A stretch of DNA of 64,000 nucleotides from a virus: IMG/VR virus record IMGVR_UViG_3300032516_000005; one strand, written 5' to 3'. A program made the position numbers and the translations under genes. The notes beneath the pieces are model-generated. The model saw only the letters and a list, made by a program, of their open reading frames with translations, did no database searches and was not told the origin of the DNA. Positions 21,790-41,922 of this stretch are shown piece by piece. The first letter of the stretch is position 1. Each line of letters opens with the position of its first letter.

Positions 21790-21803
21790 GTGGGCTCCAG
21801 GTC

Positions 21804-21860: not shown

Positions 21861-21890
21861 ACCTTTCGCCAGCATGATAGCGTTCTTGAC

Positions 21891-22694
21891 ATGCCTAGCC
21901 GCGCGCTCATGCGCCGACCTGCCGACGGAGCGCTTGGCGCCACCACCGAAGGTCTCCGTCCCACAACCGGAGAAAAGACTGCCATCGTCGCGATGATCGC
22001 AGGTGGGATCGCCGTGATCGGTGGAGCGATCGCGTACAGCGTCGCTGCACGACGCCGCACGCAGGTGCTACGCGGCGCACTTGGCCGCGTCGAAGCTCGC
22101 GTGAAGCAGGGCGGTATGACGCTCACGCATCACTACGATCCCGAGATGCCGATCGGACAGCGTGTCAAGATCCTGCAAGACCTCGTGTGGAAGGGCGTGC
22201 AGAACCCGCAGATGCGTGAGCTGGCGCTCGCGATCACCGGCAACGGCACACGCGACGTCACGGTCGGCAAGCGGCGATTCAGCGTCAAGGGCGCGAACTG
22301 TCCGGCGCGCGACGGACTCTGCGAAGCCGAGTCGATCTACAACTGGACGAAGAGCAACATCCGCTACACGGGTGACGTCGCGCCCGTGACGATGCCCGGC
22401 GGTGAAGTCGAGGGCGTTGACCTGTTCCAGAGCGCGCTCCGCACCGTCGAGTTCGGCGGTGAGGACTGCGACGGGCACACCATCGTGACGTCGACGCTGC
22501 TCGCGCTCAACGGCATCCCGCCGAAGTTCCGCATCACGGCACCGTCGAAGTCGAGCGACTGGGCACACATTTACGGGCTCGCTGGCCTGCCGAAGACCCA
22601 GCCCACTCGGTGGGTAGCGCTCGACACGACGCTGCCCGGGAACATGTTTGGTCGGGAAGCTCCGAATGCCAAGCACATGGACTTCGTGGCGTAG
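21891..22694 (+). CDS. Membrane-anchored transglutaminase-like cysteine protease (putative maturation protease)
   Basis: IYNWTKSNIRYTGD, GEDCDGH (Cys), WAHIY (His), WVALDTT (Asp); N-terminal TM; start reset to MPSRAL, 7 nt after TAGCGT. Confidence 0.8.
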   Translation: MPSRALMRRPADGALGATTEGLRPTTGEKTAIVAMIAGGIAVIGGAIAYSVAARRRTQVLRGALGRVEARVKQGGMTLTHHYDPEMPIGQRVKILQDLVWKGVQNPQMRELALAITGNGTRDVTVGKRRFSVKGANCPARDGLCEAESIYNWTKSNIRYTGDVAPVTMPGGEVEGVDLFQSALRTVEFGGEDCDGHTIVTSTLLALNGIPPKFRITAPSKSSDWAHIYGLAGLPKTQPTRWVALDTTLPGNMFGREAPNAKHMDFVA

Positions 22695-25209: not shown

Positions 25210-25302
25210 GATCGCTGTTGGGACTGTCGTCTACGTGCCAGTAGTAACCATGTGAAATTGCTAGTGAATCAACTTGATCGCGGGCGCGATCGCCAGTAGG
25301 TT
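25210..25302 (+). promoter_or_regulatory. Two operator-like sites and -10 box of the capsid operon
   Basis: GATCGCTGTTGGGACT at 25210-25225, GATCGCGGGCGCGATC at 25276-25291, TAGGTT-N7-ATG. Confidence 0.75.
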
Positions 25303-25309
25303 GAACAAC

Positions 25310-26194
25310 ATGATGGTCCCGTGGACGGCGGCACAACACGCCTCGATGCATTGGCGCCCCGACGCGATCACGCGAACGGGCGTCATCGAGCCGATGTGGA
25401 TTCGCCAGGTCAGTCCAGTGGACATGGCGCGGCACACGATCGATCCGTTCATCAACAGCGTGCGTGGGCCAGGCCCCGCCGTGTCGCCCTACCCGTCGCC
25501 CGAAGACATCGCCTACGTCGCAGGCAAGCTCGCGCAAGAGTTTGCGCGCGGTCGCGCTGCCGTGATCTCTCTCGGTACCGAGAAGATCAGGGTCACTGCA
25601 GGCACGCCGCCGGCTGGTGGCATCGTCGGAACGATCACCGCAGCTGCCCAACAGCTCGCACGCGGCAGCACGGTTGCCATCGAAGTCGGTGGACGACGTG
25701 TGATCGTCTGCTGCAGCGGTCCTGGCGGTGAGCCCGTCGTGGCATCAGCGGCTTCCGCCGCGCCCGCGAAGCCGACGCACACTGAAGCTTCCGCCGCGCC
25801 CGCGAAGCCGACGCACACTGAAGTTTCGGTGCGCGACGGCAACGGCTTCGGTACGCCGTTGATCGCGAACACGATCCTTCCCAAGGTCCCGCAGCCGGGC
25901 AACGTTCCGCAGTTCCCGTATCTCGACTACGGAAGCTACTACCGCGAGAAGATCTACGACGACAACATGTGGGCGCGTCGCACGGCGCAAGCGACCCTTG
26001 CACAACGGTTTGCACCCGTACCGATTCAGATGATGAATGCCGCGAACCGGCATCCAATCCTGAACGCGCAGCATCAGGCTCAGACGCCACTGCACTCGCG
26101 CGCACCGATGGCACAGAAGCGCATGCCCGAGCCCGCGCGCGTGTTCCCGCAGCAGGTCGCGATGACGTACATGGTTCGCAAGGAGCAACGCTGA
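25310..26194 (+). CDS. Putative virion protein
   Basis: First gene of the capsid operon; NGFG motif; internal duplication ASAAPAKPTHTE. Confidence 0.65.
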   Translation: MMVPWTAAQHASMHWRPDAITRTGVIEPMWIRQVSPVDMARHTIDPFINSVRGPGPAVSPYPSPEDIAYVAGKLAQEFARGRAAVISLGTEKIRVTAGTPPAGGIVGTITAAAQQLARGSTVAIEVGGRRVIVCCSGPGGEPVVASAASAAPAKPTHTEASAAPAKPTHTEVSVRDGNGFGTPLIANTILPKVPQPGNVPQFPYLDYGSYYREKIYDDNMWARRTAQATLAQRFAPVPIQMMNAANRHPILNAQHQAQTPLHSRAPMAQKRMPEPARVFPQQVAMTYMVRKEQR

Positions 26195-26445
26195 TGCCCA
26201 GCGTGTTCACCATTGACGGCGCCACCGTGCCGCCTGCCAAGCCGGCGAAGGCCAAGCGTGTGCGCAAGACTGCCACGCTCGGTGACACGCCCGTCATCGG
26301 CTTCTGCAAGTCCGTGAGCAATCCCAAAACCAGCTGCGAGATGCAGCTCTGTTACGTCGGACTCGGTACGCGCACGCGCACCGGCAAGAAGAGCCGGACC
26401 GGCTGGGAATTCCAACAAGGGTCTTCGCGCTGTTCGCGACGCTAG
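26194..26445 (+). CDS. Small basic Cys-containing protein
   Basis: AAGGAG RBS, TGATG coupling; TLGD then a 4-Cys basic domain. Confidence 0.65.
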   Translation: MPSVFTIDGATVPPAKPAKAKRVRKTATLGDTPVIGFCKSVSNPKTSCEMQLCYVGLGTRTRTGKKSRTGWEFQQGSSRCSRR

Positions 26446-26495
26446 CGCGCCACGACAACGCTTTTTTTCAACGACAACCAGAGAAGGACAAGATC

Positions 26496-27389
26496 ATGAA
26501 GAACGACAGTGGCGCGCTTGGTAACTACGGCGAAGGTGAAGACATGGGCGTTGGCGAGGTCGACATGTTCGGCCTCGACGAGTTCGGTCAGCCCGTCGGC
26601 GACGCGATGTGGGGTTCCGTCATCGGTGGCGGCATCGGTACAGGCGTCGCGATCATGACGCGTGCGATGACCGCGACGTCCTCGACGCTCCATCAGTACA
26701 GCGAGTTGACCGGCCTCGTGGCTGGCGGCGCTGCGGGTGGCGTCATGATGGCGTTCGAAGGCACGCGCCGCATGGGCATCGCCGCGATCGCGACCGCGCT
26801 CGTGACCAACGGGCTGCGTCAGCTGGAGCGGTCACTGTTCGCGCCGCAATCCACGGTCGCCGAACTTCAGGCACAACTCGCTGCAGCCATCGCTGACAAG
26901 GATGGCAAGTCGGCATCCGTGAAGCTGCCTCCGAAGGGCGCCGGCTGGGGTGGGGTCGTGATGGATCCGACCGCGGTCATCCAGCCCTACCAGGGCAACG
27001 GCTTCGGCATCCACTCGATCGAGCCCGGTTACGTCGTCCCGGCGAACCTGCCGTCGATCATGAACGGCTTCGGTGGACCGGGCAACGTCACGATGAACCC
27101 GACGGGCGTCATCTGGCCGCAGGGTCACCCGAACGCGGGCTTCGGCGCTGCGGCGATCGAGCCGGGCTACCTGATCCCGGGTTCGAACAACGGCAGCTTC
27201 GCGTCGGGCGGTGGCGCAGGCTTTGGGATCGATCAGCCGGAGACGATGGGACCGCCGACGCTCGTCGGTGCCGGTGACTACGGCATGGGCAACAACGCGG
27301 GCGCCACGCAGACCCGCCTCCTCGGCGGCCCGAACGTGTCGTCCATGGGCGCGCACTTCGGCGCGACCCTGTTCGGCGGCAGCAACTAA
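26496..27389 (+). CDS. Gly/FG-repeat-rich membrane protein upstream of the capsid gene
   Basis: AGGA RBS, highly biased codons, 2-3 Gly-zipper TMs, more than 10 [FLM]G motifs. Confidence 0.8.
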   Translation: MKNDSGALGNYGEGEDMGVGEVDMFGLDEFGQPVGDAMWGSVIGGGIGTGVAIMTRAMTATSSTLHQYSELTGLVAGGAAGGVMMAFEGTRRMGIAAIATALVTNGLRQLERSLFAPQSTVAELQAQLAAAIADKDGKSASVKLPPKGAGWGGVVMDPTAVIQPYQGNGFGIHSIEPGYVVPANLPSIMNGFGGPGNVTMNPTGVIWPQGHPNAGFGAAAIEPGYLIPGSNNGSFASGGGAGFGIDQPETMGPPTLVGAGDYGMGNNAGATQTRLLGGPNVSSMGAHFGATLFGGSN

Positions 27390-27431
27390 CGACCAACGAA
27401 CGACCGACGAACGACCAACGAACGACCAACG
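27388..27431 (+). repeat. 4 x 11-bp tandem repeat AACGACC(A/G)ACG
   Basis: Directly visible. Confidence 0.9.
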
Positions 27432-27551
27432 TTGTCCCTGCGATTCAGCGCGGCTGAATTGCAGCGGCGATCGCTGGTCGGCGATCAAAGCTGACGCGAA
27501 TTTTCGCGGCAGCGCTTTTAGGCGGCGTTGAGCCGCCCTTTCACGACAACC
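27431..27551 (+). ncRNA. Candidate multi-hairpin structured leader of the capsid mRNA
   Basis: GTTGTC/GACAAC closing stem around four hairpins, abutting the CAGGAG RBS. Confidence 0.45.
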
Positions 27552-27564
27552 AGGAGACGAGACC

Positions 27565-28314
27565 ATGGCCGGAGCAGTTGGCGTAGCCCCATCAACCACC
27601 ACCCTCACGCTGCCCGACGGCAGCACGATCGCACTCGCGGACTGGATCGACGACAAGCTGTACGGCACCGTGCAGTTCTCGAACGGTCTCACCACGCCGC
27701 TCGAAGCGTTCTCTTCGGGTCGCTCGCAGCCGATCCCCGGCGGCACGCGCGTACAGACGCGCGTCGACACGAACATCCCCCGCAACGGCGACTCGGGACT
27801 CCCGAAGGACTGGGAGATGCTCGTCTACGGCTGGGGCATCAAGCTGGTTCGCGTCATGCGCGCACCGGACACTGCCCCGCTCGCGCCGACCCTGAAGGAC
27901 GACTACAACCAGATCATCCCGGGTCCGGGTGCCGGCGTCGCGCCGTTCGCGCTGTCGGATCCGCCGACGCTCCAGACGCTGTTCCAGGTGGACCGCGTGA
28001 CGTTCTTCCAGTACGAGTACAACGCGAAGTTCTACACGCAGGGCGTGTTCCAGGACTACCCGCAGGGACACGGCTACTCCGTGTTCAGCACGAACACCGC
28101 GTTCGAGCTGGCGCAGAACGGCGTCCCGTCCCCGCGTGATCGCGTGGCGCTGGTGCTGCCGGTGCACGAGCGTGAGAACCTCGGCTACAAGGGAATTTTC
28201 CAGCCCGAGGCGCCGTGCAAGATCGCGCAGGCGGCGAGCGACGGTGCGACCGCGCTCAACTTCGCGGACGTGAAGCTCTACAAGTACGGTCTCATCAAGC
28301 GTACGGTTGTGTGA
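27565..28314 (+). CDS. Putative major capsid protein (large, single jelly-roll type)
   Basis: 249 aa, beta-rich, LYGT...F...DTN...G.LP...V.GWGI pattern; extreme codon bias, strong RBS, strong terminator; no HK97 features recognised. Confidence 0.6.
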   Translation: MAGAVGVAPSTTTLTLPDGSTIALADWIDDKLYGTVQFSNGLTTPLEAFSSGRSQPIPGGTRVQTRVDTNIPRNGDSGLPKDWEMLVYGWGIKLVRVMRAPDTAPLAPTLKDDYNQIIPGPGAGVAPFALSDPPTLQTLFQVDRVTFFQYEYNAKFYTQGVFQDYPQGHGYSVFSTNTAFELAQNGVPSPRDRVALVLPVHERENLGYKGIFQPEAPCKIAQAASDGATALNFADVKLYKYGLIKRTVV

Positions 28315-28322
28315 GGGCGTAA

Positions 28323-28378
28323 CCTCTCGATAAAGTTCGAGAGGACACCCACTTCGGCAACGAAGTGGGTTTTGTTTT
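28323..28378 (+). terminator. Double hairpin, Rho-independent terminator
   Basis: CCTCTCGA/TCGAGAGG, then ACCCACTTCG-GCAA-CGAAGTGGGT plus TTTGTTTT. Confidence 0.85.
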
Positions 28379-28412
28379 ACCTTGCGTTTACAAGATAGGC
28401 CATGCACAACCT

Positions 28413-29228
28413 ATGAGCATGCGCAGCCGTTACACCCGCGACGTTCCGCCCTCACTTCAACCGCCACCGGAACGTTGGCAGAAGCTCGTCGGGCACCGGT
28501 TCGGTCGACTCACCGTGTTGGGCTTTGCGGGAACGATGACGCCGCACGGACAGAAGATGGCGACGTGTCGCTGCGACTGCGGCTTCTACGTCGATGTCAT
28601 GCCCGCGAGCCTTCGCAGCGGTGCTACGGCGTCTTGTGGTTGTGCGCATTCGGAGAGCGTCGAACGGCGCAACCGGCAGAACACGAAGCACGGTGCAGCA
28701 CGTGTACAAGCGGGTTCACGTTCGCTGCCCTACCTCTACCGCTCGTGGGTGCAGATGAAGCAACGCTGCTTCAGCTCAACACACGAGGCCTATGCAGACT
28801 ACGGCGGGCGCGGCATCACGATGTGCTCCGAGTGGCGTGCTGACTACCAACGCTTCGAGGACGACATCCACGCAGCGATTGGTCGTCGCCCTGCACGAAC
28901 GCACTCGCTCGACCGCATCAACAACGACGGCAACTACGAGCCCGGCAACGTCAGGTGGGCAACGTCCGAGCAACAGAGCCGCAATCGTCGTTCGACAAGA
29001 CGCTTCGAGCTGAACGGCGAAGTGCGACCACTCGCTGAGTGGTCGGACATTGCCGCGCGTCGGTACGAGACAGTTAAGTCGCGGATCCTGACCTACGGCT
29101 GGCCACTCGACGAAGCGCTCGGGACGCCGTCTGGTTCAGGCCGCTGCCCGCTCGAAGAACGCGTGAAGTGGACAACAACCGAGGCCTACCAGAGCTACCT
29201 GAAGCGCGAGAAGTTCGTGGTAGGATGA
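28413..29228 (+). CDS. HNH homing endonuclease
   Basis: G.RFGRLTV, CRCDCG, SCGC, YGGRGITMC, SLDRINNDGNYEPGNVRWAT..Q.RN. Confidence 0.88.
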   Translation: MSMRSRYTRDVPPSLQPPPERWQKLVGHRFGRLTVLGFAGTMTPHGQKMATCRCDCGFYVDVMPASLRSGATASCGCAHSESVERRNRQNTKHGAARVQAGSRSLPYLYRSWVQMKQRCFSSTHEAYADYGGRGITMCSEWRADYQRFEDDIHAAIGRRPARTHSLDRINNDGNYEPGNVRWATSEQQSRNRRSTRRFELNGEVRPLAEWSDIAARRYETVKSRILTYGWPLDEALGTPSGSGRCPLEERVKWTTTEAYQSYLKREKFVVG

Positions 29229-29292
29229 CGGGCATGGCGAAGTGGAAGAAGTCCGATCGTCCCTACGACAGTGAACATCTCGACGCAGGGCG

Positions 29293-30129
29293 ATGCGGTG
29301 CTCGCGTGAAACCGGGCCGCGACGGCTACGAGTGCAGGTCGGCGGCACGACGCCGCCGACGGGCCTGATCCTCTGCGACCTTCCCGGTGTCGGTTTCACG
29401 GCCGAGTCGTGGGTGCGTACGCGTGCCTGCTACTTGCCCGGTGCGCTGTTCCTGATGGCGCCGCTGTCGATGACGAGCTGCTTTATCGACGAGTCGTTCA
29501 CGATCGGTGGGCCGTTCAAGATCACCGTCTGGGGTGCACGCGGCCTCGACAACCTGATTCGCCAGTGCGTCATCAAGGGCACCACGCCGATCTTCTTCCG
29601 TGATCTGTTCGATCAGTTCAACGGCGGCGCGATCGGCTTGCTCGACATGCAGAGCGTGCAGCTCCTCGACATGCTGCCCAACTTCGCGCCACCGACCGCA
29701 AACGACATGGACGCGCCGATCAACAGCGCGATCTATTGGACGGGCGGTCAGGCGTACTTGATGGGCGTCGACATCGAGAACACGGCCCCGGTGGCGCCTG
29801 TCGTCGGTGCGACGAACGCGGTGATCACCGTCGCCGGTAACGGCGCGCACATGCAGCTTCGTAGCGTGACCTGCTCAAGCCTCCCGGCGAACCTGTACCC
29901 CGGCGTCGGTGCGGCGGCCGTCGACGGTGGCTACATCACGCAGAACGACACGCCCTACGAACCGTTCGTTCCGGTCGGACCCGCGACGACGGTTGCAGGC
30001 ACGCTCGGGGCCTTCAAGTCGGGCGCCACGCCGATCCAGGCCGCGTGGCCTGCAGTGGTCTACCCCGCCCTGGGCTCGAACTTTCCCGACTTCGTCGACG
30101 AGGGCACGCGCGTCTGGCGCAAGTCGTAG
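29293..30129 (+). CDS. Beta-rich structural-like protein, 5' end unclear or disrupted
   Basis: Good codon bias from about 29330 but no convincing start or RBS. Confidence 0.5.
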   Translation: MRCSRETGPRRLRVQVGGTTPPTGLILCDLPGVGFTAESWVRTRACYLPGALFLMAPLSMTSCFIDESFTIGGPFKITVWGARGLDNLIRQCVIKGTTPIFFRDLFDQFNGGAIGLLDMQSVQLLDMLPNFAPPTANDMDAPINSAIYWTGGQAYLMGVDIENTAPVAPVVGATNAVITVAGNGAHMQLRSVTCSSLPANLYPGVGAAAVDGGYITQNDTPYEPFVPVGPATTVAGTLGAFKSGATPIQAAWPAVVYPALGSNFPDFVDEGTRVWRKS

Positions 30130-30174
30130 ACCTCGCTTCCTCTCACCCCCTCTTTCACGCTCTCAGGAGAATCC

Positions 30175-30396
30175 ATGGCTCGTAGCATCGAAATTGCCGT
30201 CAAGAAGACCGTCACCGCCAAGCTCCGCGAGCGCGGCATGTCGGAGAAGTCCGCGGACGCGGTCGCCGACAAGAACGCCCCTGCCGCGCTGAAGACGTTC
30301 AACGACGCTCTCGTCAAGCACAAAGCGCCGACGGAAACCGCGTATGAACAGGCATTTCAAGCCGTTACGCAGTGGACGGCGACGCTGAAGCCGTAG
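30175..30396 (+). CDS. Small hypothetical protein
   Basis: CAGGAG RBS, biased codons, terminator follows. Confidence 0.75.
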   Translation: MARSIEIAVKKTVTAKLRERGMSEKSADAVADKNAPAALKTFNDALVKHKAPTETAYEQAFQAVTQWTATLKP

Positions 30397-30434
30397 CGCT
30401 CGCTCTCGTTCTCGCTCTCTAGGTCAAGGAAAAG

Positions 30435-30469
30435 CGGCCCGGTCTTCGAACCGGGCCGTTTCTGTTTTT
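30435..30469 (+). terminator. Rho-independent terminator
   Basis: CGGCCCGGT-CTTCGA-ACCGGGCCG plus T-rich tail. Confidence 0.8.
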
Positions 30470-30793
30470 CGGGGTCCTTTTCAGGTCTTCCCGATCATCA
30501 TCGCGAGTGGTGATGGCGGCGGCGGTGGCACGCCACAGAGCGATGTTCTACGGTACGACAGCCAGTCATCCCGGATCTCGTTCCGCGACGCGCAGTGGTG
30601 TCTCAACCACTGACTTCATCGCCGCCAACACGGGCTTCTATGCAAAGCAGTCGCGTCGGCCCGCTGTGTACGGTTCCGCGGCCGCGAGGCCGAGGCGCTA
30701 CTTTAGTTAGCGAGATCTGCGCTTTACAACATGCTCGTGACTTGACTGTCAGGGGGCCCATCTAGGATGGTCCACAGAACAAGGGAGCACGAC

Positions 30794-33124
30794 ATGAGCA
30801 AGAGCAAGATCGACACGGAATTGTACTCGTACGAAATCGAGAAGGGTCTCTACTTGGTTCGGCAGGCCGTCACGCCTGCCGCCAAGCCGAAATCCGTCGA
30901 GACACCGACCAACCACATCGCCGTCATCGACTGCAGCGGCAGCATGGGCAGTGACCTGCCGCGCATCCGCGAGCAGCTCAAGAAGAAGCTGCCGAAGCTG
31001 ATGAAGGACGGCGACACGCTGTCGCTCGTCTGGTTCTCGGGCAAGGGCCAGTTCGGCGCCTTGATCGAAGCCGAGCCCGTCAGCACGCTGGCTGACCTGG
31101 CCGACATCAACCAGGCCGTCGATCGCTGGCTGCGCCCGATCGGTCTCACAGGCTTCAAGGAGCCGCTGCAGGAGGTCGAGAAGCTCGTCGCGCGCGTCAG
31201 CAAGAAGAACAAGAACCCGTTCGCGTTGTTCTTCATGAGCGACGGCTGCGACAACCAGTGGAACCGTGCCGACATCCTCAAGGTCGTTGAGCAGACCGCA
31301 GGCGGGCTCGCGTCGTCGACGTTCGTCGAGTACGGCTACTACGCCGACCGGCCGTTGCTCGCTGCCATGGCTGAAAAGGCCGGCGGCGTACACATCCACG
31401 CCGACGCGTTCGACAAGTACGAAGTCACATTCGAGGCCGCGATGCAGAAGCGCCCGATGGGCGGCAAGCGCGTCGAGGTCGAGATCGACGGTGACGCGAT
31501 CGGTGGTTTCGCATACGCGCTCGCCGACGGTGAGATCACGACGTACGACGCGAGTTCCGGTAAAGCCCTCGTGGCCGAGGGCACCGTTGACATCTTCTAC
31601 CTGTCGCCGACGAAGCAGGGCGTGACCGAGTCGCTTGCAGGCCACATGCATCCCCATAACGCAGCGACGGCACGCCAGATCACTGTCAGCGGTGTCTACG
31701 CTGCGCTCTCGCTGTTCGCCGTACGCATGAAGCCCGAGGTCGTCTATCCGATCCTCAAGGCTCTCGGCGACGTTACGTTCATCAACGCGTTCTCGGTCTG
31801 CTTCGGTAAGCAGAAGTACTCCGAGTTCATGGACGCTGCGAAGGCCGCTGCGTTCGAGCCCAAGTTCCGGTTCACGAACGGCTGGGATCCGAACAAGGTC
31901 CCTGCTGACGACGCGTTCACCGTGCTCGATCTTCTCAAGACGCTTGCCGACGACGATTCGGCACGCGTGCTGCTCAACCATCCCGCATTCAAGTACTCGC
32001 GCATCGGGCGTGGCCGCGTCGACGCCGACGAGAACCTGACGTCTGCAGAAGAAGACCAGGTCGAAGTGATCCGGACCAAGATGGCCGGTGAGAAGAACGC
32101 CAAGAAGCTGAAGGAACTGCAGGTCGAGATCGATACGATCCTGGCCGCCAAGCGCGACGCGCTCAAGTTCGTGGCCGACGAGGCGTCGAACGGCTACCCA
32201 ATCTCGAACCTGACGTACAACGAGTGCAGCCCGAACGTCAGCATGCTGATCAAGAAGACGGGCACGGTTGACTTGACGTCACGGCACGATCAAGCCGGAT
32301 CGGACATTCACGACAAGATCCCGTCGAGCTTCCCGACGCACATCTGGCGGAACTACGCGATCATCAGCCATGGGCTCGTGAACGTCGAGAAGCTGCCGGT
32401 GAAGATCTCGACAGAAACGTGGACTGCGCTAACGAACGCGGGCGTCGAGATGCTGGCCGACGGTGACAACAAGTTCATCATCAACGTCAAGCCGCTGCCG
32501 ATCATCAACCGCAAGATGGTCAAGGCGGTCTCGGCGAAAGACATCATCGAGCTGGAGTACGAGCTGACCAAAGCTCGTGCCGCCCAAAAAGTCTACAAGG
32601 CGTACTCGAACGAGATGTTCCCCGAGGCCAAGCTCGCGGGCTTCGCTGACAAGTACGGCGACGACGGCGCTGCCTGGCTGAAAGACCAGGGCTTCACGTA
32701 CAATGGCTTCGCGCCCAAGTTGACGTTTGCGGCGTCGACGGACTTCATCATGGGCAAGGAGCTGGAGGTCAAGCTCAAGGGCTTCTCGACACTGCCGCCG
32801 CTCAAGGACGTCAAGGCCAAGATGGGTGCCAAGATGAACGGCCCCGCGACGCTCATGGCGATCGTCATCAAGGACGTCGAGAATTTCCTCAAGAACAACC
32901 CGAAGAACCTGCACCAGAAGTGGCTGACGGGTCAGACCGAAGCACAGATCGCCAAGACCCGCGGCTTGATCTGGCAGACGGCGCAGATTCGCTTCTCGAT
33001 TATCGTCGGTCAGACGTGGTTCAGCGAGTTCAAGTCGCTCGACGAGAATCAGCTGACCGTCAAGATCGGCACCGAGGACGTTGTCGGGACCTGTGAGCTG
33101 CGCGAAATTCAGATCAAGGTCTGA
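30794..33124 (+). CDS. VWA (MIDAS) domain protein
   Basis: IAVIDCSGSM, GLTGF, FFMSDG, MAEKAGG; GGGAG RBS; TTGACT-N16-TAGGAT upstream. Confidence 0.85.
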   Translation: MSKSKIDTELYSYEIEKGLYLVRQAVTPAAKPKSVETPTNHIAVIDCSGSMGSDLPRIREQLKKKLPKLMKDGDTLSLVWFSGKGQFGALIEAEPVSTLADLADINQAVDRWLRPIGLTGFKEPLQEVEKLVARVSKKNKNPFALFFMSDGCDNQWNRADILKVVEQTAGGLASSTFVEYGYYADRPLLAAMAEKAGGVHIHADAFDKYEVTFEAAMQKRPMGGKRVEVEIDGDAIGGFAYALADGEITTYDASSGKALVAEGTVDIFYLSPTKQGVTESLAGHMHPHNAATARQITVSGVYAALSLFAVRMKPEVVYPILKALGDVTFINAFSVCFGKQKYSEFMDAAKAAAFEPKFRFTNGWDPNKVPADDAFTVLDLLKTLADDDSARVLLNHPAFKYSRIGRGRVDADENLTSAEEDQVEVIRTKMAGEKNAKKLKELQVEIDTILAAKRDALKFVADEASNGYPISNLTYNECSPNVSMLIKKTGTVDLTSRHDQAGSDIHDKIPSSFPTHIWRNYAIISHGLVNVEKLPVKISTETWTALTNAGVEMLADGDNKFIINVKPLPIINRKMVKAVSAKDIIELEYELTKARAAQKVYKAYSNEMFPEAKLAGFADKYGDDGAAWLKDQGFTYNGFAPKLTFAASTDFIMGKELEVKLKGFSTLPPLKDVKAKMGAKMNGPATLMAIVIKDVENFLKNNPKNLHQKWLTGQTEAQIAKTRGLIWQTAQIRFSIIVGQTWFSEFKSLDENQLTVKIGTEDVVGTCELREIQIKV

Positions 33125-33132
33125 TTCTCGAA

Positions 33133-33909
33133 TCAGGGCGCTGCTGTGACTGACAGGATGACCTGACCAGCAGCGACTGAGCTGCTGCCCTTGGCGTAAA
33201 GCGTCTGGTGGCGATCAATGCGGATGCGGCGCTCCTGGCCGGACGGCAAGTTGATTGCGCTCGCGGTGTGAAGTGCGTTTGGTGTGAATGCAAGTACGGC
33301 CGTCGCACCGCGTGGCTCAACGACGTGCACGACAACTTCGATGGCATGCGCGCCGGCTGTGACCAGTCGTTCTGCGGGTGTGTTGGAGTCGATCGACGAC
33401 AACCGTTGGTAGAACGGCGTAGTGGACAGATGAAACGGCGGCAGCGGTGGTTCACCCAACCCTGTAACGGATCCCAGCTCCGTGTGCGTAACAGCCATCG
33501 GTGCGGGTGCTGACGTCGGAGCACTCGCACTCCCATTTCCCGTGTTGATCACGAACACCTGCGGTGCCGCAGGAGCCGCTGCTGGCGCAGGCTGCGGCAA
33601 GTAGCGCGGATCAACAGATCCCAGTACGGTCTGCGTGCCGTCATCCTTGCGACGCACGAGCAAGTAAACGACCACGCCCATCACGCCGACGACAGCGATG
33701 ATCCCAAGACCGATCGCGAGCGACATCCACAACGGACCGCGATCGCCGCGGTCGCCGAATTCTTCGTCCCGCGCAAGCTGACGCTCCTCGGCCTTGACGC
33801 GCGCGATGGCGAGTCGGTCCTGTGCTTCTGCGAGTTGTGCGGCACGACGTGCGGCAAGGTGTTGCAGATGCGCACGTAGCCGCGGGGGCGTTCGACGCTG
33901 GGAAGGCAC
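33133..33909 (-). CDS. TM protein with C-terminal small beta domain, paralogous to 35633-35938
   Basis: TM plus RRK, TGLGE, then AGAHAIEVVV...LPSGQE...QTLYAKG. Confidence 0.7.
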   Translation of the reverse strand: MPSQRRTPPRLRAHLQHLAARRAAQLAEAQDRLAIARVKAEERQLARDEEFGDRGDRGPLWMSLAIGLGIIAVVGVMGVVVYLLVRRKDDGTQTVLGSVDPRYLPQPAPAAAPAAPQVFVINTGNGSASAPTSAPAPMAVTHTELGSVTGLGEPPLPPFHLSTTPFYQRLSSIDSNTPAERLVTAGAHAIEVVVHVVEPRGATAVLAFTPNALHTASAINLPSGQERRIRIDRHQTLYAKGSSSVAAGQVILSVTAAP

Positions 33910-33938
33910 GAGGACAGGATACTACGAGTGCGAGTTGG

Positions 33939-33954
33939 GATCTTGCAAGCGATC
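33939..33954. promoter_or_regulatory. Operator-like variant GATCTTGCAAGCGATC
   Basis: Upstream of TATCCT-N6-GTG. Confidence 0.55.
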
Positions 33955-34960
33955 ACGTGTTGGACTTGGCTGTGCCCCGTACAGCCCGGCCGCGGCACAG
34001 ATCACGGCTCAGGGCTTGCCCTGCGAGGGTACTCAACGTCGGCGCGTACTGACTCAGTAGCAGGTCGACCTCGCGTGTCTTCTCAACCACGTACGGTTGC
34101 ACATCACGCAGGAACGCAAGCACCGCCTCACGTCGCGTCAACGACCACTTCAACTGATGTCGCCGAGGCGGCTGCTTTCTACAAAAGCGCAAGACACCGC
34201 CGTAAACCGCATGCAGCCGCAGCAGCGCCTCCACGCGTGTCTGGTTGAAAGCGATCGCGAGATGCCATGTCGTTGATTTCATGCGCAAATCTACCGACCC
34301 GTCGCCGTCGAAGTAGCCTGCGAAGTAGGCAAGCTCGGTCGACGTCACCGTTGGCCGTTCGAATGCTGTGGCACCCCGTCGGGGACGAAGACAGATCAAG
34401 GTTCCAGCGGCACGCGCACGTTGGTAATGCAACGTACACAGCTGCTGCGCACGCGCTGCTCGACGACAACCGTCAGTCGTACAACGAGGATGTTGCGGTC
34501 GCTTCGACTTTGCCTCCAAGGGCAAATTCCGCGAAGTCAGTGCGATCTTCTTCATACGTTTCAGATCGTGGATTAGTTGCTGCGCTTCAGGCGCAGGCAT
34601 CCGCGTAGAGAAACGTGTGAGCACAGCTTCAACCTGTGCGCGTTTCTCTCCGAGATACGGTCGGATGTCTTCGAGGAAGCACGCCACGATGTTGAAGCGC
34701 GACAGCGCCCAACTTGTTTTCTCACGCCAATTTGCGCGCTGACGTTGGATCACGTTCAACGAACCGCCGTAGAAATCGTGTAGCTGTTGGAGGACGACCG
34801 GGTTCGTTTGCCCGAAGTCGACACGTGTACGCCAGCTCCGACCGGCGTTAATCGGGAACACGCCGATCGATCCTTCGGCATCGAAGTAGCCCGCGAAATA
34901 GGCGCAACGATCAGTAGTTGGACGACGTGGCGCAGTCATCAGCGTGATCGTGCTTATCAC
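33953..34960 (-). CDS. Free-standing double-motif LAGLIDADG endonuclease
   Basis: AYFAGYFDAEGSI and AYFAGYFDGDGSV, each followed by QT..L..L...YGG and I/V.PY...K; central Cys/His motif. Confidence 0.88.
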   Translation of the reverse strand: MISTITLMTAPRRPTTDRCAYFAGYFDAEGSIGVFPINAGRSWRTRVDFGQTNPVVLQQLHDFYGGSLNVIQRQRANWREKTSWALSRFNIVACFLEDIRPYLGEKRAQVEAVLTRFSTRMPAPEAQQLIHDLKRMKKIALTSRNLPLEAKSKRPQHPRCTTDGCRRAARAQQLCTLHYQRARAAGTLICLRPRRGATAFERPTVTSTELAYFAGYFDGDGSVDLRMKSTTWHLAIAFNQTRVEALLRLHAVYGGVLRFCRKQPPRRHQLKWSLTRREAVLAFLRDVQPYVVEKTREVDLLLSQYAPTLSTLAGQALSRDLCRGRAVRGTAKSNT

Positions 34961-35027
34961 ATTGCGTAACCACGACGGATCAAAAAACGCTCAGGGCTTC
35001 CAGCGTTAGCACGGTTCGTCTAGAGTC

Positions 35028-35043
35028 AGTCCCAACAGCGATC
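35028..35043. promoter_or_regulatory. Operator-like variant, exact reverse complement of 25210-25225
   Basis: AGTCCCAACAGCGATC just after TAGAGT, upstream of the small capsid gene. Confidence 0.65.
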
Positions 35044-35081
35044 GACCTTCGACCGCCGCCGATCCTTACACGGAGAAGATC

Positions 35082-35618
35082 ATGGGCCGCCTACCACTTC
35101 AATTTGCCGGTAAGGACGTCACGTTTCGCATACCCTATAATATTGCCGCCGAGCTGGATGTCGGTCCGAACCTCTCGGGCATCGTGTTCCCCGAGGCGAG
35201 TTTCCTGCACAACGTCGACAAGCCGTTCGAGATCCATCGCGTGATCATTCGGCTCACGGCAAAGGGAACGCCGGCCACGTTCGTCACGCCGACGGTGCTC
35301 GAACCGCAACCTACGACACTCGAAGAGCGCGTGCGGATGCGTATCCTCGACTTCTCGAAGAACGAGAACCTCACGAAGTCATCCACGTTCGTGAGCCTTC
35401 TGCTCAATCGCAACACAGGTGCCTGGGATCTCGAAGAGCCGTACACGATCGTGCGGTCCGAAGGTTTTCAGGTGCAGATCGACACGCAGGACTATCCAGC
35501 GGTCGTCATCCTCGATGCCACCATCCAACCCGAACGTGTTGACGTCCAGTTCGTGCGCATCGAACTCAACTTCCAGGGGTATCTTGACATCATCGGGCCG
35601 CCGAGCGAAGTACGCTGA
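35082..35618 (+). CDS. Putative second (small) single-jelly-roll capsid or penton protein
   Basis: 178 aa, alternating beta strands, DKPFEIHRV...VRMRILD...WDLEEPY...FQVQI...IELNFQGY; GGAG RBS. Confidence 0.55.
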   Translation: MGRLPLQFAGKDVTFRIPYNIAAELDVGPNLSGIVFPEASFLHNVDKPFEIHRVIIRLTAKGTPATFVTPTVLEPQPTTLEERVRMRILDFSKNENLTKSSTFVSLLLNRNTGAWDLEEPYTIVRSEGFQVQIDTQDYPAVVILDATIQPERVDVQFVRIELNFQGYLDIIGPPSEVR

Positions 35619-35632
35619 GCTGACGAGTCGCG

Positions 35633-35938
35633 ATGCAGAACTCCCACTTTCAGACGATCACGGTCCTCCCCGTTGGATCAACGACACCGACGACGATCAT
35701 CAAGGCGGGAAAGCATCCAATGCGCGCCGTCGTGAGCAACGTCGGGCCTGTACTGGTCTTCGTTGCTGCAACGACGACCGACTTGGCGCCGTTGCCGTCG
35801 ACGGCGACGTACCGGCTGTTTCCCGGTGAGCAAGCCGTGTTCGTTGCGGCACCAAAAGAAGGTCTCTACGTCATCGGTGCTGCGGTGGGTGGCCTGGTGT
35901 CGGTCTCGGATTCTGAAGCGCTGCCTGTAGCGCTGTGA
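35633..35938 (+). CDS. Small all-beta putative virion protein
   Basis: 101 aa, co-transcribed with the small capsid gene. Confidence 0.6.
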   Translation: MQNSHFQTITVLPVGSTTPTTIIKAGKHPMRAVVSNVGPVLVFVAATTTDLAPLPSTATYRLFPGEQAVFVAAPKEGLYVIGAAVGGLVSVSDSEALPVAL

Positions 35939-35949
35939 AAGGATTTGCC

Positions 35950-36315
35950 ATGAAGAACCGCGAGACCTGGGATGATCGTTACGGCTTGCTCAACCCCCCC
36001 TATCTGTACTTCGGGTCGATCATCGTCACCGCCAACTTCCTGGCTGGTGTGGACAGTGGGCGGTCAACGATTCTCGTGAACGCGGGCGGTGTAACGGTGA
36101 CGTTGCCGCTCGCTGCGGATAGCGTCGGCAAGGCGTTCTTCATCAAGAACATCTCAGCGATTGGCGCCACCACGATCTTGCCGAGCGGCACCGACCTGAT
36201 CGATGGTGTCACCGCGGGCGGTGGTGGGCAGTCACTGCCGGATCAGTACGACGTGATGCTCGTCGTCTCCGACGGCATCTCGAACTGGTTCATCCTGAGT
36301 TCTTCGAACCTCTAG
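35950..36315 (+). CDS. Spike-tip-like domain protein
   Basis: VTLPLA...GKAFFIKNI...TILPSGTDLIDG...VVSDGISNW, similar to the C-terminus of 1198-2469. Confidence 0.7.
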   Translation: MKNRETWDDRYGLLNPPYLYFGSIIVTANFLAGVDSGRSTILVNAGGVTVTLPLAADSVGKAFFIKNISAIGATTILPSGTDLIDGVTAGGGGQSLPDQYDVMLVVSDGISNWFILSSSNL

Positions 36316-36770
36316 TAACAGAAACCGAACCTGTTGTGCGGCGGGTACAGCGCGCACATGGGCTTGACCGCCGGACAGTCGCTGTTCATGTCACAAGTCT
36401 TCGTGCACTTGTTGCTGACGCAGTGATGCTCGGTCGTGCAATCGAAGTCCTGTGAGCACGAAGCGCCTTGGCCAGCAGCGCCTGGCGCATGACAGTAACC
36501 GACGGTCAACTGCTGGCTGAGCGGGTAGCATGCATCACCCAGTGCGCAGCCGGTCTGCGCGATGATGTCGCAGGTGTTGGGATCCGCGTCCTGGATCAGC
36601 TGCGGAGCGTCGATCATCGTTGCGTCGATGCTGTGCGGTCCGTCTCCGGTCGAGTCGACAACAGCATCCACTGTCGGACCCGGCCCCGTCGAATCTGGTG
36701 CGCAGCCCATCGTCATCACCGGGCTCGACGAGCACCCAACGATCAAAACACTCACGAAGAAATGTCGCAT
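36312..36770 (-). CDS. Myxobacterial-type Cys-rich lipoprotein
   Basis: MRHFFVSVLIVGC lipobox, IDA/DAP linker, CDIIAQTGC..GDACY...C...G...GASC...DC. Confidence 0.65.
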   Translation of the reverse strand: MRHFFVSVLIVGCSSSPVMTMGCAPDSTGPGPTVDAVVDSTGDGPHSIDATMIDAPQLIQDADPNTCDIIAQTGCALGDACYPLSQQLTVGYCHAPGAAGQGASCSQDFDCTTEHHCVSNKCTKTCDMNSDCPAVKPMCALYPPHNRFGFCY

Positions 36771-36860
36771 CAAACCTCTAGACGTAAGCATATACTGAGC
36801 ATTCACTTGTCGAGAGCATGTTGTGAATGGCCGGCTAACTACGCTAAATAGCAAAGTTTT

Positions 36861-37841
36861 TCAGTCGAAAGCGTCAATGCCCAGTTCCAGCGCCCCGATT
36901 CCTGCGGTGTTCGCGTGGATGATCAAGAACGAGACACCGGGACTTTCGATCGTGAACACGTTGCTCTGATCAGCGGCGATCGCAACGCTCGCCGCAAGGA
37001 GCACTTCAAAGTGATCGGTGATGCCGAATGGGGCTACCGTGTTTGAAGTCGCCAGCACTTCACTGAAAGTGCCGGTGATGGTGACGTTGACTGCGACAGC
37101 CGATCGGTTTCGTGCCGATACGCGAACACGTCGGCGGCCGACGATCGGCATGACGCGAATGATGCGATCCGTGGCGTCTGGACTACAGAGGAACGACAGG
37201 TGAAACGGTGCGCGCGCCGTTGGCGGCAACGCTGCACGGCCGTTGAAGTAGAGAAGCAGGCGTAGCTCGGGATTGATCCAGATCGGCCCGTTGTACCCGA
37301 ACGTCTGCCCGGCGAGCTGTGTTCCGTACGGCTGACCTGGACCGCCCCCGAGAGGAAAATAACGATCGGCGAACCACGCTACGGGATGCGCGCGGATGAT
37401 GATGGGGCCCGGCTGCTGTCCGATGAGTGGTGCGTGCGTGTCGAGAACTTGCTCGCTCTGGAGGATGCCGCCCTTGTTGACGAAGCCCTGATCGATCGTG
37501 CAATTCACCAAATCGGGACCCGGCACGAGTGGTAGATTCACGAACGTCGGAGGCACTTGCGGCAGCGGAACGTAGTGCACGATGCAGCGGTCGATGTCGC
37601 TACGCGGCGCGATCGCGATCGCGGCCAAGCTCGGAATCTCCGGCAGCGTGAACTGCCCGAGGATCGGAATCGACCCGTTGCCGATCGGCGGTTGCGGTGT
37701 CACGACGGGGGGATAGCTGATCGAGCCGTTGTTCGGATCTTGCGCCATCCCACGATTGCCCCAGTTCGTCAGGATCAGTTCGTAGACGTTGTCGCCGAGC
37801 TGCTTCGCATCAGCGAAAGTCCGCGGGTTGATCTGGGCCAT
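36861..37841 (-). CDS. Beta-rich putative virion protein (vertex candidate)
   Basis: Start MAQINP, 7 nt after TACATT; Pro/beta-rich, C-terminal jelly-roll-like strand pattern. Confidence 0.6.
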   Translation of the reverse strand: MAQINPRTFADAKQLGDNVYELILTNWGNRGMAQDPNNGSISYPPVVTPQPPIGNGSIPILGQFTLPEIPSLAAIAIAPRSDIDRCIVHYVPLPQVPPTFVNLPLVPGPDLVNCTIDQGFVNKGGILQSEQVLDTHAPLIGQQPGPIIIRAHPVAWFADRYFPLGGGPGQPYGTQLAGQTFGYNGPIWINPELRLLLYFNGRAALPPTARAPFHLSFLCSPDATDRIIRVMPIVGRRRVRVSARNRSAVAVNVTITGTFSEVLATSNTVAPFGITDHFEVLLAASVAIAADQSNVFTIESPGVSFLIIHANTAGIGALELGIDAFD

Positions 37842-38154: not shown

Positions 38155-38466
38155 ATGCTCGGTTACACACTCGGCAAGAACGGCAAGAGCGGCAAGGGCA
38201 AGCCCAAGAAGAAGTCCACCACCTGTCGCCAGGGCATCGTCAAATTCAAGACGAAGCGCGGCAAGGTCATCTCGTTCAAGGGCAAGACTGGCCCCGGTTG
38301 CGGTCCCCGCCCCAAGCCGAAGACAGGCCACCTCGCGCCCTACAAGAGCGCGATGGCACGCGCAGCGACGGCTTGCAAAGGCCTCAAGAAGGATCAATTC
38401 CAGAGCTGTGTCGCCAGCGCAATGCATGGCAAGGCGCTGGGCAGGCGTCGTCGGACACGCGGATAG
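38155..38466 (+). CDS. Highly basic putative DNA-condensing core protein
   Basis: CAGGAG RBS; Lys/Arg-rich, four Cys; TLG near the N-terminus, ALG before the poly-Arg end. Confidence 0.7.
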   Translation: MLGYTLGKNGKSGKGKPKKKSTTCRQGIVKFKTKRGKVISFKGKTGPGCGPRPKPKTGHLAPYKSAMARAATACKGLKKDQFQSCVASAMHGKALGRRRRTRG

Positions 38467-41169: not shown

Positions 41170-41922
41170 GTGCTCTTCACGACGTACAACGGCGTTGGCG
41201 GATTCGGATCGGTGATCCACGGATTCGGTGCTCCACGCACGTTCATCAAGGGTACCGACTTCAACTGCAATCAGTACATCTGCTACGGCATCGGACCGAA
41301 CCACCAGCTGTTCAAGGATCTCCAAACGACGCTTAACCGTTACGGGCAAACGTTTGGTTCGTTCAAACCGCTTCTCGTTGACGGCTTCATCGGTGACTCG
41401 ACGGTGAAGGCTGTCGCCATTGCCGCAGCGACAGCGAACATCGCGTCGCTTGGAATGACGCGGGAAGCCGTTGCCGCGAACGCGCCTGCACTGATCGAGC
41501 AGCTGACTGCTTTCCTGGTGCCGGTTGTGCCAACGCAGCCGATACAACCTCCGATCGTCGTCACGCAGCAACAGCCACAGCCCGCGCAACCGGCACGACC
41601 TCAACCCGTACAACCGGGTCAGCTTTCGCCGCAACCCGCGCCACCGCCCGCGCAACCCACGCCAGTCACGCACCCTGGTGCGCAGACGACACCCTCACCT
41701 GGTGCGCAGACGCCACCCGCCGCATCGTTAGTGCCGCTGACACCGACAGCGTCCAAGATCCCGACGTGGGTCTGGATCACTGCAGGCGTCACAGGTGCCG
41801 TCGTGGTCGGCCTGGTCGGCTTCGCGTTGCGCAAGCCGGCACCTGAAGCGCTTGGCCGCGACGATGACTACGATTACGACGACTACGGTTACGGTTCTCG
41901 CTACCGGCGCCGTTGGTGGTAA
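41170..41922 (+). CDS. Tail-anchored PGBD-like putative virion protein (family B)
   Basis: GGFG, HGFGA, DFNCNQYICYG, PLLVDGFIGDST, TM, ALGR...RRRWW. Confidence 0.8.
   Translation: MLFTTYNGVGGFGSVIHGFGAPRTFIKGTDFNCNQYICYGIGPNHQLFKDLQTTLNRYGQTFGSFKPLLVDGFIGDSTVKAVAIAAATANIASLGMTREAVAANAPALIEQLTAFLVPVVPTQPIQPPIVVTQQQPQPAQPARPQPVQPGQLSPQPAPPPAQPTPVTHPGAQTTPSPGAQTPPAASLVPLTPTASKIPTWVWITAGVTGAVVVGLVGFALRKPAPEALGRDDDYDYDDYGYGSRYRRRWW

Follow-up and report, generated by a model that had tools for sequence, protein, structure and literature searches.

Sulfolobus polyhedral virus 1 (SPV1, Portogloboviridae), which infects Saccharolobus and has a genome of 20 kb, forms its shell from hexamers of VP4 and pentamers of VP10 and has no motor. 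Members of the Halopanivirales (SH1, HHIV-2, HCIV-1 and P23-77) have two vertical jelly-roll capsid proteins, a small and a large one, an internal lipid membrane, a genome of about 16-31 kb and a packaging ATPase of the FtsK/HerA superfamily encoded in a conserved ATPase-capsid block; P23-77 represents this capsid architecture in bacteria. To our knowledge, every bacterial or archaeal virus described so far whose genome exceeds about 50 kb has a tail, an HK97 capsid, a portal and a terminase, while vertical single jelly-roll viruses have 16-31 kb, and we know of no single jelly-roll capsid for genomes above about 31 kb.

We analysed 64,000 nt of the IMG/VR record IMGVR_UViG_3300032516_000005 (hereafter the window), with positions 25310-37841 as the study range. 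An earlier note, made from the sequence alone, had proposed that this region encodes two single jelly-roll capsid proteins of a lineage related to the Halopanivirales. The two proteins concerned are here termed SJR1 and SJR2. We propose, with moderate confidence, that this region encodes the core particle module of a lineage of large dsDNA bacterial viruses not described before, with SJR1 as major capsid protein and presumably motor-less packaging.

Gene content of the module and its relatives

The window is part of a contig of about 167 kb, of which about 103 kb lies outside the window and was seen only for 10 kb past the window's end; the genome is thus not about 64 kb in size. Three relatives (G002, G003 and G008; in ascending order of length 69.3, 137.8 and 195.6 kb) are taken as complete because their ends match, and genome sizes across the group range from 69 to 221 kb. 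The lineage is widespread in soil and sediment. A family A polymerase, helicases and lysis genes are encoded by the viruses themselves, and integrases were also found. Furthermore, integrated copies were identified in a Gemmatimonadota chromosome, in an island of about 40 kb that carries homologues of the 294-aa gene at 25310-26194. Gemmatimonadota are hosts of at least some members, and the lineage is probably temperate. Together with the endolysin in the window, these copies agree with the peptidoglycan-containing bacterial host that the earlier note had proposed. The features of the study range and selected genes outside it are as follows.

25276..25291, + strand: palindromic box GATCGC-N4-GCGATC (exact match), heading the operon that SJR1 closes
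25310..26194, + strand: 294-aa protein, first gene of the putative capsid operon (gene call; syntenic in relatives)
26194..26445, + strand: 83-aa ORF (gene call)
26496..27389, + strand: 297-aa Gly-rich protein with GFG/GWG repeats and a hydrophobic Gly-zipper segment (sequence; GC3 0.84)
27565..28314, + strand: SJR1, a single jelly roll of 249 aa and candidate for the major, hexamer-forming capsid protein (fold, conservation)
28315..28385, + strand: double-hairpin intrinsic terminator (direct reading)
28413..29228, + strand: HNH homing endonuclease, inserted after the candidate capsid gene (phrog_374, E 2e-60)
29293..30129, + strand: 278-aa protein with strong codon bias (GC3 0.86; gene call)
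30767..33124, + strand: 785-aa von Willebrand A-domain (VWA) protein (phrog_2426, E 5e-166; weak VWA Pfam matches)
33133..34960, - strand: two ORFs separating the jelly-roll genes (gene calls), namely the next two entries
33133-33909, - strand: 258-aa ORF (gene call)
33953-34960, - strand: likely LAGLIDADG-type homing endonuclease (faint LAGLIDADG_3 match on a homologue in an ENA contig)
35082..35618, + strand: SJR2, a single jelly roll of 178 aa and candidate for the vertex (pentamer) or a second capsid protein (fold)
35633..35938, + strand: 101-aa protein, always adjoining SJR2 (same arrangement of homologues in G002, G003 and the Gemmatimonadota island)
35950..36315, + strand: 121-aa protein (phrog_37034, E 4e-4; 60% identical in G001)
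36861..37841, - strand: 326-aa conserved protein (48% identical in G001 and G002)
38155..38466, + strand: very basic 103-aa protein (29 K/R, 1 D/E by charge count), just outside the study range
8020-9006: endolysin, GH25 and PG_binding_1 (Pfam/PHROGs)
56019-56903: integrase (Pfam/PHROGs)

The SJR1 gene closes a late-type operon near lysis and membrane-protein genes, headed by a palindrome that is enriched in the window (24 matches with ≤1 mismatch versus 0.8 expected). It had been described as the most strongly expressed-looking gene, and each of the cited signs was borne out: its GC3 of 0.88 is the second highest among called window genes, after the 311-aa gene at 47182-48117 (0.92), CAGGAG sits 9 nt before its ATG, and two GC-rich hairpins followed by TTTTGTTTT were read directly after its stop. 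Translation and termination signals are strongest at this gene. No other window gene is conserved as well in the relatives as SJR1 (91% and 69% identity), and 1.84 billion proteins contain 126 clusters of its family at 50% identity. SJR2 is likewise encoded by a real ORF, preceded by a GGAG site; of 300 candidate clusters at 90% identity, 250 score E <= 0.001 against it. No relation between the two families was detectable. Two ORFs of the same sizes as SJR1 and SJR2 (249 aa, 2546-3295; 178 aa, 10196-10732) are unrelated to the jelly-roll genes.

The 297-aa Gly-rich gene always lies directly 5' of SJR1, with syntenic homologues in G001, G002, G003 and G009, and its product is a candidate membrane or scaffold partner. 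The 294-aa protein is 57-59% identical in G001 and G002 and, like the 326-aa protein, has no match in Pfam or PHROGs. The second best-conserved gene of the module encodes the VWA protein (72% identical in G001, 52% in G003). The basic 103-aa protein is conserved as well (70% in G001, 51% in G003) and is a candidate DNA-condensing core protein. Both HNH and LAGLIDADG endonucleases are present in the window according to Pfam/PHROGs; the HNH gene at 28413-29228 has no BLAST counterpart in G001 or G003, and one window protein, which the listing of the batch Pfam scan does not identify, matches LAGLIDADG_3 (E 4.5e-9). As the earlier note had seen, the window encodes an endolysin and many small membrane proteins: a membrane helix is predicted in 22 of the 88 called proteins, many at the C-terminus, and overall in 17-25% of proteins. 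The spikes that the note also listed could not be confirmed, as the proteins of 831, 661, 484 and 363 aa match nothing.

Tailed-phage hallmarks and packaging genes

No capsid, portal, terminase or tail family was identified in the window by Pfam (~95 ORFs) or PHROGs (30 largest), in agreement with the earlier reading. The same holds for the relatives, on which the proposed check for hallmark genes outside the window was run without refuting the earlier reading: none of eight families, namely four of terminases, two of portals and two of capsids (HK97 and T4; PF03237, PF03354, PF17289, PF04466, PF04860, PF07230, PF05065, PF07068), had a match in the related records searched (G002, G003, G008 and others), with the complete G003 included in every search, whereas the T4 capsid family was readily found in an Ackermannviridae genome used as positive control (E 8e-124). 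Pfam scans covering the whole proteomes of G003, G008 and the window gave no virion hallmark, and no tail sheath, tube or tape-measure family is present in these listings. These absences apply at HMM sensitivity, with structures predicted for two proteins only.

The packaging genes show a similar picture. In the window, a Walker A motif occurs only in a small membrane protein of 110 aa (9668-10000) and no polymerase was found, so neither a packaging ATPase nor a polymerase is visible in the window, as noted before. The search for an FtsK/HerA-type ATPase was extended to relatives. The FtsK family (PF01580) was absent from all five records searched, which included G002 and G003, and a HerA/DUF87-like ATPase is encoded only in G001 and G002, within the replication module; it is absent from the complete G003 and has no BLAST counterpart in G008. 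Thus, no FtsK/HerA-type ATPase lies beside the jelly-roll genes and none is conserved in the group. Almost all Walker A ORFs in G003 and G008 are replication/repair enzymes or carry the motif near the C-terminus. The exceptions are a 567-aa G003 protein that adjoins the particle genes and contains internal Walker A motifs without a family match, and a 540-aa P-loop protein of the replication module with no family assigned.

These results bear on whether the window could derive from a very divergent large tailed phage whose HK97 capsid, portal and terminase escape HMM searches and whose jelly rolls are decoration/cement or receptor-binding proteins. Genomes of 138-221 kb are typical of large myoviruses, and HNH endonucleases and the genome size range are shared with large tailed phages. 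Elsewhere, the VWA gene (phrog_2426) occurs in Ackermannviridae and phages like them (33-35% identity over 94% with Ackermannviridae; homologues in 504 phage records, mostly of this family). In addition, Atlas clusters of the same fold bear automatic 'Uroviricota' labels, and the jelly-roll cement proteins of KHP30, KHP40 and Pam1 and a tail-fibre domain are among the structural matches (Z 5-7). Most large proteins of the group are unmatched, and a cryptic HK97 fold may be hidden among them. However, of the hallmarks the large terminase is usually the one detected most easily, and no unassigned ORF with an N-terminal Walker A motif fit to be a large terminase was found in G003 or G008. The eight hallmark families are unmatched in three genomes taken as complete despite the strongly positive control, whose T4-type capsid gene sets Ackermannviridae apart from the relatives of the window. 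Furthermore, SJR1 is the best-conserved gene, a position seldom held by the decoration protein of a phage lineage. We therefore consider a tailed phage unlikely.

Predicted folds of SJR1 and SJR2

Structure prediction and fold comparison, as had been suggested, yielded single jelly rolls for both proteins. The AF2 model of SJR1 is a beta sandwich with one jelly roll (pLDDT 86, pTM 0.83). Its best VIA-align match is SPV1 (6oj0_A; Z 9.0, 140/178 residues, rmsd 3.4), 1.4 above the next row, followed by HHIV-2 (Z 7.6) and SH1 (Z 7.4), while cellular PHM reaches Z 7.3; the alignment tool calls Z 7-9 common for unrelated jelly rolls. Against 48,161 PDB representative chains, compared without Foldseek, SPV1 (8.3), HHIV-2 (7.8) and HCIV-1 (7.4) lead, and Foldseek places SPV1 first (prob 0.97). 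In the viral library, Foldseek gives SPV1 VP4 a prob of 0.98 at rank 7 by E-value. Thus, three separate rankings of SJR1 are all led by capsid proteins of membrane-containing viruses.

The SJR2 model is likewise a beta sandwich with one jelly roll (pLDDT 90). It matches SH1 (6qt9_C, Z 8.3), HCIV-1 and SPV1 (both 7.6) and P23-77, HHIV-2 and PRD1 P3 (all 7.5) in VIA-align, but nucleoplasmin-like domains tie with these capsid matches (Z 8.1-8.2). As modelled, SJR2 has a generic jelly-roll fold that matches capsid and cellular proteins equally well, and instead of a second major capsid protein it may be a minor protein or the vertex (pentamer) protein. Of the two capsid proteins claimed earlier, both folds are therefore confident jelly rolls and the 249-aa protein is most like capsid proteins, whereas the matches of the 178-aa protein do not separate capsid from cellular folds. 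Double jelly-roll capsid proteins of Bamfordvirae align to the two models over one barrel only (Z 5-7.6), and no sequence similarity of the jelly-roll proteins to any solved capsid protein was found.

The jelly roll is a common fold, and SJR1 and SJR2 could also be non-shell proteins (nucleoplasmin-like chaperone, Ena-like fibre, secreted/surface or carbohydrate-binding protein) of a virus or integrative element whose particle is otherwise built or non-icosahedral. We regard this as improbable: nucleoplasmin-like (Z 7.9-8.2), PHM, GOLD and Ena structures lie near the capsid matches of SJR2 and within 2 Z of those of SJR1, and the scanned part of the Gemmatimonadota island gave no replication or integrase gene, but SJR1 has capsid proteins as its top matches and lies in a late-type operon, distant relatives encode three tandem SJR1 paralogues, as expected for mixed capsomers and suited to a multi-subunit lattice, the Pfam listings (G003, G008, window) contain no relaxase or type IV secretion family, and 19 related contigs are classed as viral in IMG/VR.

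A putative SPV1-like particle and its implications

With a particle module built around SJR1 as the preferred reading, two described groups invite comparison. The Halopanivirales provide the second- and third-best matches of SJR1 (Z 7.4-7.6) and the best of SJR2, in addition to P23-77 VP17 and the VP16-VP17 complex (Z 6-7.5). They share two unlike jelly-roll proteins, here as predicted folds, and a membrane-protein-rich module with the window, although orientation and stoichiometry are unreadable from monomer models. Contrastingly, the jelly-roll genes here are not adjacent (6.8 kb apart in the window, 1.9 kb in G003), there is neither an adjoining nor a conserved packaging ATPase, sequence similarity is lacking, and genomes are 2-10 times larger, in line with the at least twofold excess that had been predicted. 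Given these differences and the best match to SPV1, the proposed halopaniviral kinship is not supported.

SPV1 is a closer analogue than the Halopanivirales. In addition to the structural matches of SJR1 and SJR2, both SPV1 and the window combine two different single jelly-roll proteins with many small membrane proteins, as judged here from genes and predicted folds, and neither has a conserved packaging ATPase. By analogy, the very basic small protein could act like the VP1 nucleoprotein. Differences from SPV1 include the lack of sequence similarity, the bacterial host, the genome size of 69-221 kb versus 20 kb and about 70 extra residues in loops of SJR1. Furthermore, SPV1 lacks the family A polymerase, helicases and lysis genes that the group of the window encodes (PMC8459092).

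Whereas the folds, the conservation, the signals of expression and the missing matches to tailed-phage hallmarks are results of the analysis, the capsid role, membrane, geometry and mode of packaging are inferences. From the resemblance of SJR1 to SPV1 VP4 and halopaniviral capsid proteins, upright, hexameric capsomers would be expected, with SJR1 as major capsid protein over a lipid layer. SJR2 would then be a second shell component, most likely a vertex pentamer comparable to SPV1 VP10 or, alternatively, another subunit of the capsomers, comparable to those of P23-77 and SH1, and the small membrane-anchored proteins would be seated in an internal membrane. As no packaging ATPase is conserved across the group, DNA is presumably not driven in through a portal; it might be condensed by the conserved very basic small proteins and then enclosed, as proposed for SPV1. 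Tentatively, the group may represent a new high-rank bacterial lineage with very large icosahedral, membrane-lined, SPV1-like shells and no portal or motor. Scaled roughly from SH1 and SPV1, genomes of 140-220 kb would correspond to shells with T of about 100-200 that measure 150-190 nm across.

The finding also concerns virus classifiers, by which such contigs are labelled Uroviricota by default. If our interpretation is true, genome size would no longer be tied to tailed-phage architecture, and it would need explaining how a particle without a motor comes to contain about 200 kb of DNA. The lineage would be a bacterial counterpart of SPV1, with single jelly-roll capsids scaling to giant-virus-like genome sizes. 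The single jelly-roll capsid lineage would then reach deep into Bacteria, a point relevant to whether capsids of this type are older than the divergence of bacteria and archaea.

Genes and predicted folds of two jelly-roll proteins

The window contains two genes encoding predicted single jelly-roll proteins, SJR1 and SJR2, which are candidate components of a viral shell. These genes, and others located between or near them, are:

21627-22694, membrane-anchored protein with a weak transglutaminase-core match (E 0.0016), 80-83% identical in the related viral records G001 and G002
27565-28314 (+), SJR1, 249 aa, candidate major capsid protein
28413-29228, HNH endonuclease within the putative capsid module
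30767-33124, 785-aa VWA protein (phrog_2426)
33953-34960, likely LAGLIDADG endonuclease within the putative capsid module
35082-35618 (+), SJR2, 178 aa, candidate vertex or second capsid protein
38155-38466, basic protein, 103 aa, 29 K/R versus 1 D/E
41525-41731, basic protein, 68 aa, 21 K/R versus 1 D/E
47182-48117 (-), 311-aa protein with the highest GC3 of the window (0.92)

SJR1 is the last gene of an operon (25310-28314) headed by a mismatch-free copy of the palindrome GATCGC-N4-GCGATC, which occurs 24 times in the window (at most one mismatch) versus 0.8 expected. The strong expression signals read earlier from the SJR1 gene were borne out: CAGGAG precedes the ATG by 9 nt, a pair of GC-rich hairpins and a T-run follow the stop codon, and the GC3 of the gene, 0.88, ranks second after that of the 311-aa gene. 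The SJR2 gene is preceded by a GGAG ribosome site. The two endonuclease genes lie between SJR1 and SJR2, which are spaced by 1.9 kb in the related record G003, and look like mobile insertions, given that the HNH gene has no BLAST counterpart in either G001 or G003.

AlphaFold2 models built from the respective family alignments (SJR1: pLDDT 86, pTM 0.83; SJR2: pLDDT 90, pTM 0.81) both show a beta sandwich whose long strands are paired as in a jelly roll. In a Foldseek search of the PDB, Sulfolobus polyhedral virus 1 (SPV1) was the top match of SJR1 (probability 0.97) and nearly all remaining matches were viral jelly-roll capsid proteins; SPV1 VP4 was also retrieved from a viral model library (probability 0.98). 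Comparison with 48,161 PDB representatives without Foldseek ranked SPV1 (Z 8.3), HHIV-2 (7.8) and HCIV-1 (7.4) as the top three, and re-alignment to the best 1000 Foldseek chains yielded Z 9.0 for SPV1 (140 residues, rmsd 3.4), 7.6 for HHIV-2, 7.4 for SH1 and 7.1 for P23-77 VP16-VP17. SJR2, a more generic jelly roll than SJR1, matched SH1 (Z 8.3) as well as HCIV-1, SPV1, Faustovirus, P23-77, HHIV-2 and PRD1 P3 (Z 7.5-7.6). One of the two main rival readings is that the jelly rolls serve a non-shell role; among the matches outside viral capsids, the cellular enzyme PHM scores Z 7.3 against SJR1 in the same 1000-chain re-alignment, and nucleoplasmin-like domains reach 8.1-8.2 against SJR2. For both models, these Z values are middling on the alignment tool's own scale, and neither protein matched any solved structure at the sequence level. 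At the level of these models, the jelly-roll fold of both proteins can be regarded as established, and kinship with the matched capsid proteins as not established.

No homology between SJR1 and SJR2 was detectable (hhalign probability 2.5%), and their co-folding score of 0.00 is evidence in neither direction. Relatives of SJR1 form 126 clusters at 50% identity in an exhaustive HMMER search, and 250 of 300 candidate clusters (90% identity) are relatives of SJR2 at E ≤ 0.001; neither set includes a cluster with a Pfam assignment or an informative name.

Gene content of the window and its relatives

The 64-kb window has a G+C content of 62% and contains no large internal repeats. Pfam scans of ~95 ORFs and PHROGs scans of the 30 largest identified a GH25 and PG_binding_1 endolysin, a tyrosine integrase, HNH and LAGLIDADG endonucleases, a LuxR-type regulator, the VWA protein, a phosphatase, a GDSL lipase and the weak transglutaminase-like match, and no capsid, portal, terminase or tail families. 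One quarter of the called proteins contain a predicted membrane helix, frequently C-terminal, and the single Walker A match is found in a 110-aa membrane protein close to the endolysin. The unusually well-conserved membrane-anchored protein (21627-22694) may be a maturation protease. The 311-aa protein is probably abundant too. Its matches are phrog_28271, of unknown function, and three viral Atlas clusters without a name, and it was rejected as an alternative capsid protein, given a low-confidence Atlas model and no homologue in G001 or G003 by BLAST. The ORFs at 2546-3295 and 10196-10732, whose equal sizes hinted at a duplication, share neither DNA nor profile similarity, and the duplication was rejected. 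Furthermore, a 484-aa ORF (16383-17837) contains a 124-bp direct repeat (17109-17229 and 17649-17769, 90% identical), and 1198-2469 belongs to the multi-copy family phrog_5596, with two to four paralogues per genome in G001, G002 and G003.

Metagenome contigs that encode proteins of the window reach 167 kb, and a phage collection contained no match to either a 13-kb DNA stretch or the SJR1 protein. Close relatives of SJR1 (55-93% identity) were identified on 16 IMG/VR contigs and distant ones on three. Four records were analysed whole:

G001, 221 kb, ends without overlap, related to the window
G002, 195.8 kb, ends matching over 177 bp, collinear with the window
G003, 137.9 kb, ends matching over 123 bp, related to the window
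G008, 69.5 kb, ends matching over 145 bp, distant from the window

Because of their matching ends, G002, G003 and G008 look complete. SJR1 is the best-conserved gene of the window (91% identity in G001 and 69% in G003), followed by the VWA protein (72% and 52%). The window, G001, G002 and G003 share this VWA protein, a 101-aa neighbor of SJR2 and the highly basic protein encoded at 38155-38466 of the window, which is 80-106 aa long across these genomes. This protein, conserved in G001 and G003, and the basic one at 41525-41731 are candidate DNA-condensing proteins. G001-G003 also have genes in common that lie outside the window: for replication, those of PolA-UDG, SNF2, AAA_24, a PD-(D/E)XK nuclease and a P-loop protein of 540 aa, and in addition those of a GP88-domain protein and another VWA protein. 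In G003, locus L026 (13223-15976) encodes a UvrD-type helicase with an intein-like insertion (Intein_splicing match, residues 330-559).

Tailed-phage hallmarks and candidate packaging ATPases

In the other main rival reading, the virus is a tailed phage whose hallmark genes are cryptic; the Uroviricota labels of Atlas clusters with the same jelly-roll fold and the sharing of the VWA gene with Ackermannviridae point weakly in this direction. Homologues of this VWA protein occur in 504 phage records (33-35% identity), mostly of Ackermannviridae, where they are unannotated or named 'minor tail protein'. Six-frame HMM searches of G001, G002, G003, G008 and other related records yielded no match to terminases (Terminase_6N, TerL_ATPase, Terminase_6C, Terminase_3), portals (Phage_portal, Portal_T4) or capsids (Phage_capsid of HK97 type, Gp23), and FtsK_SpoIIIE was without match in five records including G002 and G003; as a positive control, Gp23 was recovered at E 8e-124 in an Ackermannviridae phage with the shared VWA gene. 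The best 25 of 27 Pfam families in G008 (74 proteins) comprise PolA with UDG, SNF2, AAA_24, DUF3987, integrase, Dam, M23 peptidase, holin, GDSL lipase and similar, with no virion hallmark among them, and the best 25 of 49 families in G003 (145 proteins) are of the same kind. The earlier note would have abandoned its reading had terminase, portal and HK97 capsid genes been located elsewhere on the contig. As the HMM and Pfam searches gave no hallmark match, no such genes were found in the relatives that look complete, and the contig itself was followed for 10 kb past the window, which contain NUDIX, DUF2786 and ORFs without match.

Nearly all ORFs with a Walker A motif in G003 and G008 encode replication or repair enzymes or carry the motif near the C-terminus, the exceptions being the 540-aa replication-module protein and, in G003, a 567-aa protein that has no family and is encoded next to the particle genes. 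The 540-aa protein, which lacks a PDB relative and is located among SNF2, nuclease, AAA_24 and PolA genes, was rejected as a terminase on account of this setting and its mid-protein Walker A motif, and is read as a replication helicase. A HerA/DUF87-like ATPase is encoded in G001 and G002 only, and that of G001 matches phrog_2666 'terminase large subunit' (E 1e-17). It lies inside the replication module, and since it is missing from G003 (tblastn) and without a G008 counterpart by BLAST, it was dismissed as a universal, conserved packaging enzyme. Phage relatives of the G001 enzyme are limited to two unannotated gut contigs. Locus L036 of G001 (9878-11599) encodes this ATPase with two C-terminal winged-helix-like repeats, and the C-terminal half of its 354-aa neighbor (G001, 191665-192729) matches the SJR2 family (E 1.7e-9); the two could form a packaging pair specific to their lineage or make up a nested element of their own. 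The GP88-like protein (~430 aa, 68-75% conserved; PF17338/phrog_1392) is encoded in the early region and was rejected as a hidden capsid protein, with no support for such a role.

Host, affinities and putative virion

In distant relatives the SJR1 family consists of three tandem paralogues (~231-249 aa each), which suggests mixed-subunit capsomers in this branch. Both types of locus, one of each, are found in the closed chromosome of a Gemmatimonadota MAG (G009, CP070815.1). The loci in G009 and in the distant relatives are:

L055-L058 (G008), 66220-68412, three tandem SJR1-family paralogues
L039 (distant relative), 10001-12205, three tandem SJR1-family paralogues
L041 (distant relative), 3787-5622, three tandem SJR1-family paralogues
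G009, 1187199-1189333, three tandem SJR1-family paralogues
G009, 3679228-3719540, SJR1 (74% identical to that of the window) and SJR2 in a ~40-kb island of unmatched ORFs by tRNA-Arg

The G009 loci name a host phylum and show integration. The ~40-kb island may be a remnant, as its scanned part contains no integrase or replication gene.

We found no published description of such viruses. The closest analogue of the lineage is SPV1, whose nine assigned gene functions do not include an ATPase (PMC8459092). Halopanivirales come second, although their conserved block of ATPase and capsid genes has no equivalent here and their genome size differs from those of G002, G003 and G008 (195.8, 137.9 and 69.5 kb). 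Of the larger, Halopanivirales-related lineage proposed earlier, the predicted jelly-roll folds are supported, with halopaniviral proteins among their matches, and the kinship with Halopanivirales is not supported.

The simplest reading that fits all observations is that of large, probably temperate bacterial viruses with SJR1 as the shell builder, beside which SJR2 would form a second shell component. Simple scaling from SPV1, whose 20-kb genome goes with T=43 and a shell of 87 nm, and from SH1, with 31 kb, T=28 and about 80 nm, suggests that a genome of 140-220 kb would occupy a shell of roughly 150-190 nm with T ~100-200.
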